The notes beneath the pieces were generated by a model that did not search any database, had not been told where the DNA came from, and saw nothing but the letters and a program-made list of their open reading frames with translations. This document shows positions 47,268 through 48,116 of a stretch of 64,000 bases of DNA, piece after piece (positions within the stretch are counted from its first letter, which is position 1; each line of letters starts with the position of its first letter). The stretch spans positions 2,172,001-2,236,000 of the forward strand of contig CM119372.1 in assembly GCA_051294905.1 (NCBI GenBank). Reading direction: 5' to 3'. Made by a program: the position numbers and the translations under genes. This DNA is from Botryllus schlosseri (taxonomy: Eukaryota).

Positions 47268-47719
47268 AACTTTCCTGTGTAGCGTTGATTCGGCTTTCGT
47301 TTGCGCGGACCGTCAATGCTTTGCCAATTAACTGGAGGTTTATTGGCTTTCTTCTTTTTAACTTTTTTCTTTGAAGTTTTAGGTGTATGGGGCGGAGTTA
47401 CCGCTTCGTAATTGCTCCAAATCTCGTGCGTCGCGGGCGGAGGTGTCGCGTCAAATGTGTTATTAATAGCGGGCGCCGCTCCGGGCGGATGCGACGCGGC
47501 AATTGTTTCATCGGTAGCGGGCGCTGCGGGTGCGCGGGACGACGACTTGATCAATTTCTTATTTGCACGTAGATTTCTCAATAGTCTAATGCCGTGTTGA
47601 AATAGTGCTAATTTTTCGATGCGTGTCAAATCAGAGTCCCTGATGCTTGCGATATGTTCATTGAATTTCTTTTCGTAGGCGTCTTTTGATTGTAAAGGCG
47701 GGAAGTATAATTCACGCAT
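47258..47719 (-). CDS. Hypothetical Pro/Ala- and Lys-rich protein
   Basis: ORF overlapping neighbours in the core block. Confidence 0.6.
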   Translation of the reverse strand: MRELYFPPLQSKDAYEKKFNEHIASIRDSDLTRIEKLALFQHGIRLLRNLRANKKLIKSSSRAPAAPATDETIAASHPPGAAPAINNTFDATPPPATHEIWSNYEAVTPPHTPKTSKKKVKKKKANKPPVNWQSIDGPRKRKPNQRYTGKLWT

Positions 47720-48116
47720 GTCTAGTCAATCCACCTAACAGACTTCCAATAATCGGAATTGCAGCACTTAAGATCGCTATAAATCATTAAAGTTAGATCA
47801 TGAATCGAATCGAATCACATATATATTCACCGGATAAAAAGCCACCCTTTTGAAATACTTTTTGCTTCTGTTTTTGAGATTTACAGCACAGCACTTTGCG
47901 AATGTTAGTTTTATGCTTCTTCAGTCGTGCCTTACTCGTACTTGAAATAGCTATATTACCCGAGACAAGATTACGGAGACACTCACACACACAGCTAGTA
48001 AAAGCTTTGTGAGTTAATAGCTCGTTACGCTCCTTCTTTTTAGCACTCTTTAACAGCTTCAACTTGATAAGATGATTATTTAAAGTTTTTTTCAAAACAC
48101 CGCGTGACCTCGCCAT
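47712..48116 (-). CDS. Basic core protein with adenovirus pX/Mu-like C-terminus, spliced: join(47831..48116, 47712..47776), 116 aa
   Basis: Removing a 54-nt GT..AG intron (47777-47830) gives ...QKGGFLSAILSAAIPIIGSLLGGLTRHA*; N-terminal part has CVCECLRNLVSGNI..LKKHK. Confidence 0.75.

Follow-up and report, generated by a model that had tools for sequence, protein, structure and literature searches.

Mavericks (Polintons) and adintoviruses carry the virion genes closest to the one described here. Intact Mavericks have been picked out as sets of intronless open reading frames (ORFs) and have an AGTAGT-type motif at the ends of their terminal inverted repeats, and the available sections of the same source report no introns in intact vertebrate Mavericks and locate the vertebrate gene pm between the ATPase gene and the next gene (PMC8097293; section 7 for the repeat ends and for pm). 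The virion modules of Beta-class adintoviruses contain GasderminX, and Starrett et al. 2021 (PMC8502044, in the part available) had already stated that a pX-like domain lies near its C-terminus. In adenoviruses, protein X (pre-Mu, PF05829) has a basic stretch followed by xGG and a hydrophobic tail; aa 32-50 of this pX precursor, its basic middle piece, make up mature Mu (PMC7998265), and besides the consensus of the adenovirus protease, relaxed sites with Gln at P4 have been reported (PMC4246237).

Spliceosomal introns inside integrated Polinton-type elements have been described in nematodes and dinoflagellates. The core genes of nematode Mavericks are reported to be intronless, with introns in cargo genes (bioRxiv 10.1101/2022.07.12.499685), and dinoflagellate Polinton-type elements contain introners (PMC12166617); according to these sources, most of the introns came in with host-derived cargo or as transposons that inserted after integration. 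The element described here likewise holds a predicted intron within its integrated sequence, but a single one, with no second copy in the 64-kb window; it interrupts a core virion gene, the element is intact, and the intron seems to be inherited. Retention of the third intron of the P element, or of the intron in gypsy env, leaves a stop codon and removes a mobility or infectivity function (PMC7776569, as available), and retention would do likewise here; regulation has been shown experimentally in those two systems, whereas the present intron is predicted from sequence. No intron in GasderminX/pm and no spliced core gene of an animal Maverick was found in the literature covered, nor is there such an intron in the available parts of PMC12220804, PMC11296320 and bioRxiv 2024.03.25.586562, 2023.08.22.554363 and 341131.

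The gene was studied in a window of 64,000 nucleotides of Botryllus schlosseri DNA (the whole stretch analysed), inside an element with the following features:

39650..57478, no strand assigned: intact, young Maverick/Polinton of 17,829 bp with AGTAGT...ACTACT ends and a TACGTA target-site duplication
39644..39869, plus strand: left terminal inverted repeat arm, 226 nt with the palindromic target-site duplication included, 98% complementary to the right arm
57259..57484, minus strand: right terminal inverted repeat arm, as called
42413..42865, minus strand: putative cysteine protease of 150 aa, which has His and Cys motifs and weakly matches ASFV S273R (E 0.0042)
44190..44558, minus strand: basic protein of 122 aa with the motifs QSGG and QRGHG, presumably Cupiennin/pw-like
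46260..47267, minus strand: retroviral-type integrase with chromodomain (rve E 1.9e-13, Chromo E 3.2e-10)
47258..47719, minus strand: 153-aa ORF, downstream neighbour of the gene under study, labelled pz from its position
48152..48883, minus strand: A32-like packaging ATPase, upstream neighbour of GasderminX/pm (Pox_A32, E 8.5e-10)
48777..52643, minus strand: 1288-aa putative family-B polymerase ORF, exonuclease and polymerase motifs recognised by eye

Terminal inverted repeats with AGTAGT//ACTACT ends, a 6-bp duplication (TACGTA) flanking both ends, and a retroviral-type integrase together with an A32-like ATPase (Pfam rve, Chromo and Pox_A32) mark the element as a Maverick/Polinton; the intronless state of core genes, a trait reported from intact vertebrate and nematode elements and not a strict rule, does not hold here, as pm/GasderminX has a 54-nt interruption. 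On its exonuclease and polymerase motifs we take the 1288-aa ORF to be a family-B polymerase, and library searches with it returned no polymerase match; the 122-aa basic protein is likened to Cupiennin/pw from its position, and a 425-aa ORF is labelled capsid from its size and place (single-sequence model, pLDDT 35). A 70-aa ORF with one hydrophobic stretch overlaps the integrase end (46100-46312, minus strand). Searches of viral contigs with the ORF under study, the ATPase and the 425-aa ORF, and of metagenome contigs with a two-sequence alignment, found no related loci.

The gene under study (48116-47712, minus strand) lies between the ATPase gene and the ORF labelled pz by position. A model of the body encoded by its first exon (pLDDT 84) has as best fold match the GasderminX of a Terrapene box turtle adintovirus (probability 1.00, TM 0.75, rmsd 2.4), and at 27% identity (E 5.1e-3) this protein is the sole clear match among the 49 rows listed from the viral-fold library. 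The helical body is homologous to an annotated GasderminX in this respect, and the hydrophobic, pX-like C-terminal domain is present as an in-register second exon. The PDB yielded no clear match by sequence or by fold, with no gasdermin among the fold matches listed (best Z 4.8). Searching the full library brought up 306 relatives of the gene, an atlas search with the ORF found unnamed eukaryote clusters, and word-based protein searches with the ORF or with one relative, P0001, as query returned only P0001. Judged by its modelled fold, the gene is the known GasderminX, and it equals pm by position. It is like the GasderminX of Beta-class adintovirus virion modules (PMC8502044, in the part available) in body fold, size, gene place and pX-like tail, and differs from adintovirus GasderminX and vertebrate pm, as far as these are described in the sources available, in that the tail sits on a predicted second exon. 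The gene and its pX-like tail are already known; what is new is the probable intron that splits the tail off.

As called, the minus-strand ORF runs from 48116 to 47793 and encodes 107 aa ending in QKGGFLSGEYICDSIRFMI before the stop. A sequence-only reading of the window had placed this stop within a 54-nt segment, G|GTGAAT...TTTATAG, and had taken the segment for a spliceosomal intron that separates a pX-like tail from the body of the protein. The segment lies exactly where that reading put it and contains three in-frame stops (TAA, TAA and TGA). The gene model that follows from its removal is this:

47831..48116, minus strand: exon 1, 95 codons plus one base, encoding a basic helical body that ends QKGGFLS
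47841..47852, minus strand: QKGG, putative cleavage site of the element's own cysteine protease
47777..47830, minus strand: predicted 54-nt phase-1 intron, GTGAAT...TTTATAG, 74% A+T
47792..47796, minus strand: CTAAC resembling a branch point, with its branch A 16 nt from the 3' end of the intron
47712..47776, minus strand: exon 2, the rest of the split codon, a 20-residue hydrophobic, Gly-rich, pX-like tail and the stop

We take the CTAAC at 47796-47792 to be a branch-point motif. From 47774 to 47715 the downstream piece translates to ILSAAIPIIGSLLGGLTRHA, and its stop at 47714-47712 overlaps the next ATG by 8 nt (ATGCGTGA). This overlap had been put forward as typical of the gene block; it is real, but it is weak support for the model because gene overlaps vary within the block, between 4 and 53 nt or more (4, 4, 4, 10, 14, 23 and 53 nt elsewhere, and 107 nt between polymerase and ATPase as called from the first ATG). 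The segment has the GT...AG ends and branch site of a U2-type intron, with middling signals, and its removal restores the conserved reading frame. When 54-nt spans are slid by up to 4 nt, the element shows GT..AG ends at 378 of the 17,751 places (2.1%); requiring GTRA, a branch site and YAG as well leaves nine places, which are nine slides of this single site. Counted against an intron are the acceptor, ranked 108th of 905 YAG sites, and the donor, with 6 of 8 consensus letters. A general scan found no excess of intron-like spans in the element (9 vs a shuffle mean of 10.3), and motif strength was therefore dropped as evidence. RNA folding of the intron gave nothing notable (z +1.29).

The argument is carried instead by the register of the tail and by comparison with the family. 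A profile was built from 137 of the best 150 listed of the 306 relatives, excluding P0001 and rows longer than 150 aa. In this profile exon 1 occupies columns 22-111 and the downstream piece, scored alone, occupies columns 113-130, so that one column remains between the pieces and matches the split codon. With X at the split codon, the read-through protein reaches 114.2 bits, compared with 92.2 for the called ORF; the ending coded by the intron scores -48.7, and the downstream piece is the top 14-mer (23.9 bits, next 14.4) among 127,912 in the six frames of the window. The hydrophobic tail follows directly after GGFL in 274 of 282 relatives (the best 150 of 306, 120 listed of 677, and cluster members), a count that leans towards tail-bearing proteins because the query of the 677-hit search contained tails; the 54 nt are hence an insertion relative to the family. 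Eight relatives have no direct run into the tail, and only P0001 among them departs at this codon. The tail on exon 2 is undecayed, ranking 30th among 109 family tails and agreeing with them at up to 11 of 16 positions, and it stops at the length usual in the family. The register and the contiguous relatives bear out, at the level of sequence comparison, the proposal that an intron splits the pX-like tail from the body; a lack of the downstream helix in homologs had been named as evidence against it, and the helix is present in those 274. A search for QKGGFL followed by a donor found 5 viral and 94 metagenome stretches, with no family member among the 99 loci.

That the 54-nt segment is a spliceosomal intron and gets spliced we regard as very likely. 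Assembly error, read-through of the stop codons and use of an alternative donor or acceptor are, taken together, highly improbable as other routes to the same arrangement. Further GT and AG sites do lie close by (a donor at 47818; acceptors at 47767 and 47743), but only the 47830-47777 pair yields the family register, and read-through would need to pass three stops of two kinds. Against an assembly error, contigs of two other sequencing runs, X8 and X1, which come from different studies, carry exactly the same segment.

Across the segment, the main contigs of these two runs are gapless and match the window letter for letter. In total they differ from the window at 23 positions (X8) and 20 positions (X1); that none of these falls in the intron says little, as 0.3-0.4 would be expected there. 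The differences in X8 are 17 synonymous and 6 non-synonymous, vs 0.28 expected (p 6e-6), and those in X1 are 15 synonymous and 5 non-synonymous, each change being classed alone and the two sets overlapping largely; on this test the copies are under purifying selection. P0001, which at 71% identity is the closest relative among the matches listed, ends GGFLSGK, and so diverges from the family at the same codon as the window, with G, K and the end of the protein. This protein ending would fit a canonical donor, G|GTAAGT, at the phase-1 site; by base composition, G, K and a stop have a chance of 1.3e-4. Only two of the eight spellings of G-K-stop begin with GT, which was counted against this reading, and the end of P0001 may be a contig edge instead. 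The break at this codon seems to be common to the window and P0001, in which case the interruption would be older than 29% protein divergence, the tail having stayed intact meanwhile. Together with the identity of the segment in the X8 and X1 contigs, the common break points to a family trait and not to an error or a private lesion. Because intact Mavericks have been selected as sets of intronless ORFs, an intron-bearing core gene would be miscalled as truncated, and P0001 looks like such a miscall among database proteins.

These comparisons also bear on a different account, in which the 54 nt are an unspliced insertion that truncates the tail in this lineage, the GT..AG ends are there by chance, and the tail's job has been lost or is done by the 122-aa protein. 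The frequency of GT..AG ends (2.1% of places) speaks for it, as do a short GATTC-type repeat within the segment, the lack of a spliced read (with X23, the RNA run described below, having no reads on the gene) and the report by Barreat and Katzourakis, in the part available, that gene models called introns at insertions in decayed Mavericks. Yet the tail is undecayed and of family length, the element is intact and under purifying selection, and the full pattern of GTRA, branch site and YAG at 54 nt is unique in the element; nor is there a duplication flanking the segment, or a second copy of it in the 64-kb window, where the longest match elsewhere is 12 nt. A dead insertion leaves the intact tail unexplained, all the more as the break seems to be common to P0001, a 71% relative. 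On balance we hold a dead insertion to be quite unlikely.

In its comparison with adenoviruses, the sequence-only reading had called the tail pX/Mu-like and amphipathic. The tail does resemble the C-terminal piece of pX, but not Mu, which is the basic middle piece (PMC7998265, in the part available). It is also more hydrophobic than amphipathic (mean hydrophobicity 0.76, moment 0.31; family medians 0.70 and 0.35), with a moment that is modest and family-like. Pfam Adeno_PX matches the GGFL region, below the cut-off, in 6 of 29 relatives in one set and 4 of 22 in another; the best match by a relative has E 5.4e-4 and 20.2 bits vs the PF05829 gathering score of 25 bits, and the window's tail alone had no match to Adeno_PX. 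As in adenovirus protein X, a basic stretch is followed by xGG and a hydrophobic tail; adenovirus pX lacks the helical body that GasderminX/pm has here, and the P4 residue is Gln in the GasderminX family as against Met, Ile or Leu in the adenovirus consensus (sources as available). Gln is found at P4 before GG in 244 of 258 sites tallied. The 122-aa basic protein of the element has QxGG/QxGxG at two further places, which mirrors the two adenovirus protease patterns and hints at a single protease specificity for GasderminX and the 122-aa protein; cleavage after QxGG is putative.

We consider it probable that the segment is an obligatory, unregulated intron of host type, gained once by the ancestor of this Maverick lineage and inherited since, and that normal GasderminX is made, packaged and cut. 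Beyond the register and the family context, which are observed, we infer splicing, packaging, cleavage and membrane action, which might run as follows. Host RNA polymerase II would transcribe the gene in the nucleus and the spliceosome would remove the intron, and the spliced mRNA would encode a 116-aa GasderminX/pm with its basic helical body and hydrophobic pX-like tail. Particles would take up this protein, the protease of the element would cleave it after QxGG, and the freed hydrophobic peptide may act on membranes or stabilise the core, going by adenovirus pX and the published family name. Since the sequence that encodes the tail lies beyond in-frame stops, the membrane-type tail would be made only after host splicing. 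An inherited intron in a virion gene would imply transcription and RNA processing of the gene in the host nucleus as well as its maintenance by selection, and the intron's one junction would be a simple RNA marker for activation of a Maverick virion gene, with a bearing on particle production.

Four sequencing runs were compared with positions 46000-55700. The only certain RNA run, X23, is a single-cell run from a 3'-biased library, of which about 3 in 100 was read and 161 reads were placed. No joint at 47830/47777 is among the joints listed in the four runs, with X23 having no reads over the gene (its depth is zero over 47296-48591). X23 covers the 3' ends of the polymerase gene, of a 411-aa gene and of plus-strand cargo, on the expected strands. 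X8, classed as RNA by guess only, has a flat, DNA-like profile and spans the intron unspliced; X17, also RNA by guess only, has a contig (47787-48099) that runs from exon 1 into the intron. A joint in X17 at 47861-48134 (272 nt, ends TT..AT, side 24) cannot be a GT-AG intron, whichever strand is read, and was left out of account. These runs neither demonstrate splicing nor amount to expression that lacks spliced reads, the other sign which the sequence-only reading had named against the intron. AATAAA signals at 48778 and 48156 (minus strand) overlap the stops of polymerase and ATPase, and X23 reads pile up just before the one at 48778, which fits separate mRNAs for each gene.

The sequence-only reading had gone further and proposed that splicing may switch the membrane-active peptide on or off. 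Under regulated retention, the retained intron would give a tail-less body and the spliced mRNA the tail, so that the splicing state of the host, set by tissue, piRNA or chromatin, would decide whether particles are competent. The intron is the sole interruption seen in the core genes, it stands three codons after the putative cut site and separates exactly the tail, its donor is non-optimal (6 of 8), and the X17 contig, from a run that is RNA by guess only, is unspliced at the donor; precedents by analogy are the piRNA-controlled splicing of the third P element intron and of gypsy env (PMC7776569). The ending produced by retention is not conserved, however, with 12 residues here vs 2 in P0001, and in 274 of 282 relatives the tail is encoded contiguously, with no such control. 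X23 reads at the polymerase 3' end and none around GasderminX would point to control at transcription, a weak sign given the 3'-biased library. A switch is on these grounds unlikely, and the obligatory intron remains the preferred reading. Were retention nonetheless regulated, the competence of particles from a DNA virus-like element would be controlled through splicing.

Acceptor-like sites at 52656 (minus), 53102 (minus) and 55567 (plus) are among the top eight of the 905 scored and stand 8-12 nt before the starts of the polymerase, a 134-aa ORF and a 183-aa ORF. Their place before three start codons suggests leader splicing or trans-splicing, which is reported upstream of adomavirus late genes in the source available; no joints at these three sites were seen in the four runs. 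A wider proposal, that in this animal-type lineage host splicing has come to control the membrane-type peptide of a virion protein and that the start-codon acceptors belong to an adenovirus-like splicing programme, appears unlikely. If it were true, the splicing or piRNA state of the host would decide whether an integrated element makes competent particles, much as gypsy env splicing does so for a retrovirus-like element.

Both ends of the element hold intronless cell-death and ubiquitin cargo, with Bcl-2, an E2 ubiquitin-conjugating enzyme, BIR and Death domain genes at 39899-40417, 40919-41380, 55153-55539 and 56658-56942, and three tRNA genes lie within it on the plus strand, Ala(TGC), Pro(TGG) and Leu(TAA), at 40777-40852, 41566-41637 and 54708-54791. 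The Bcl-2, BIR and Death cargo and the adintovirus-type gene set make an animal host likely. The cargo varies between copies: in contigs of X1, a DNA run, the region of the BIR gene (55153-55560) and the 5' part of the 411-aa gene (53496-54467) are missing or replaced. One X17 contig has 27 foreign letters before 55566, which match nothing within the window. To the left of the element, reverse-transcriptase-like ORF fragments were recognised by eye at 34345-37269 and within 1-33000, and many nested inverted repeats occur at 9600-26600.
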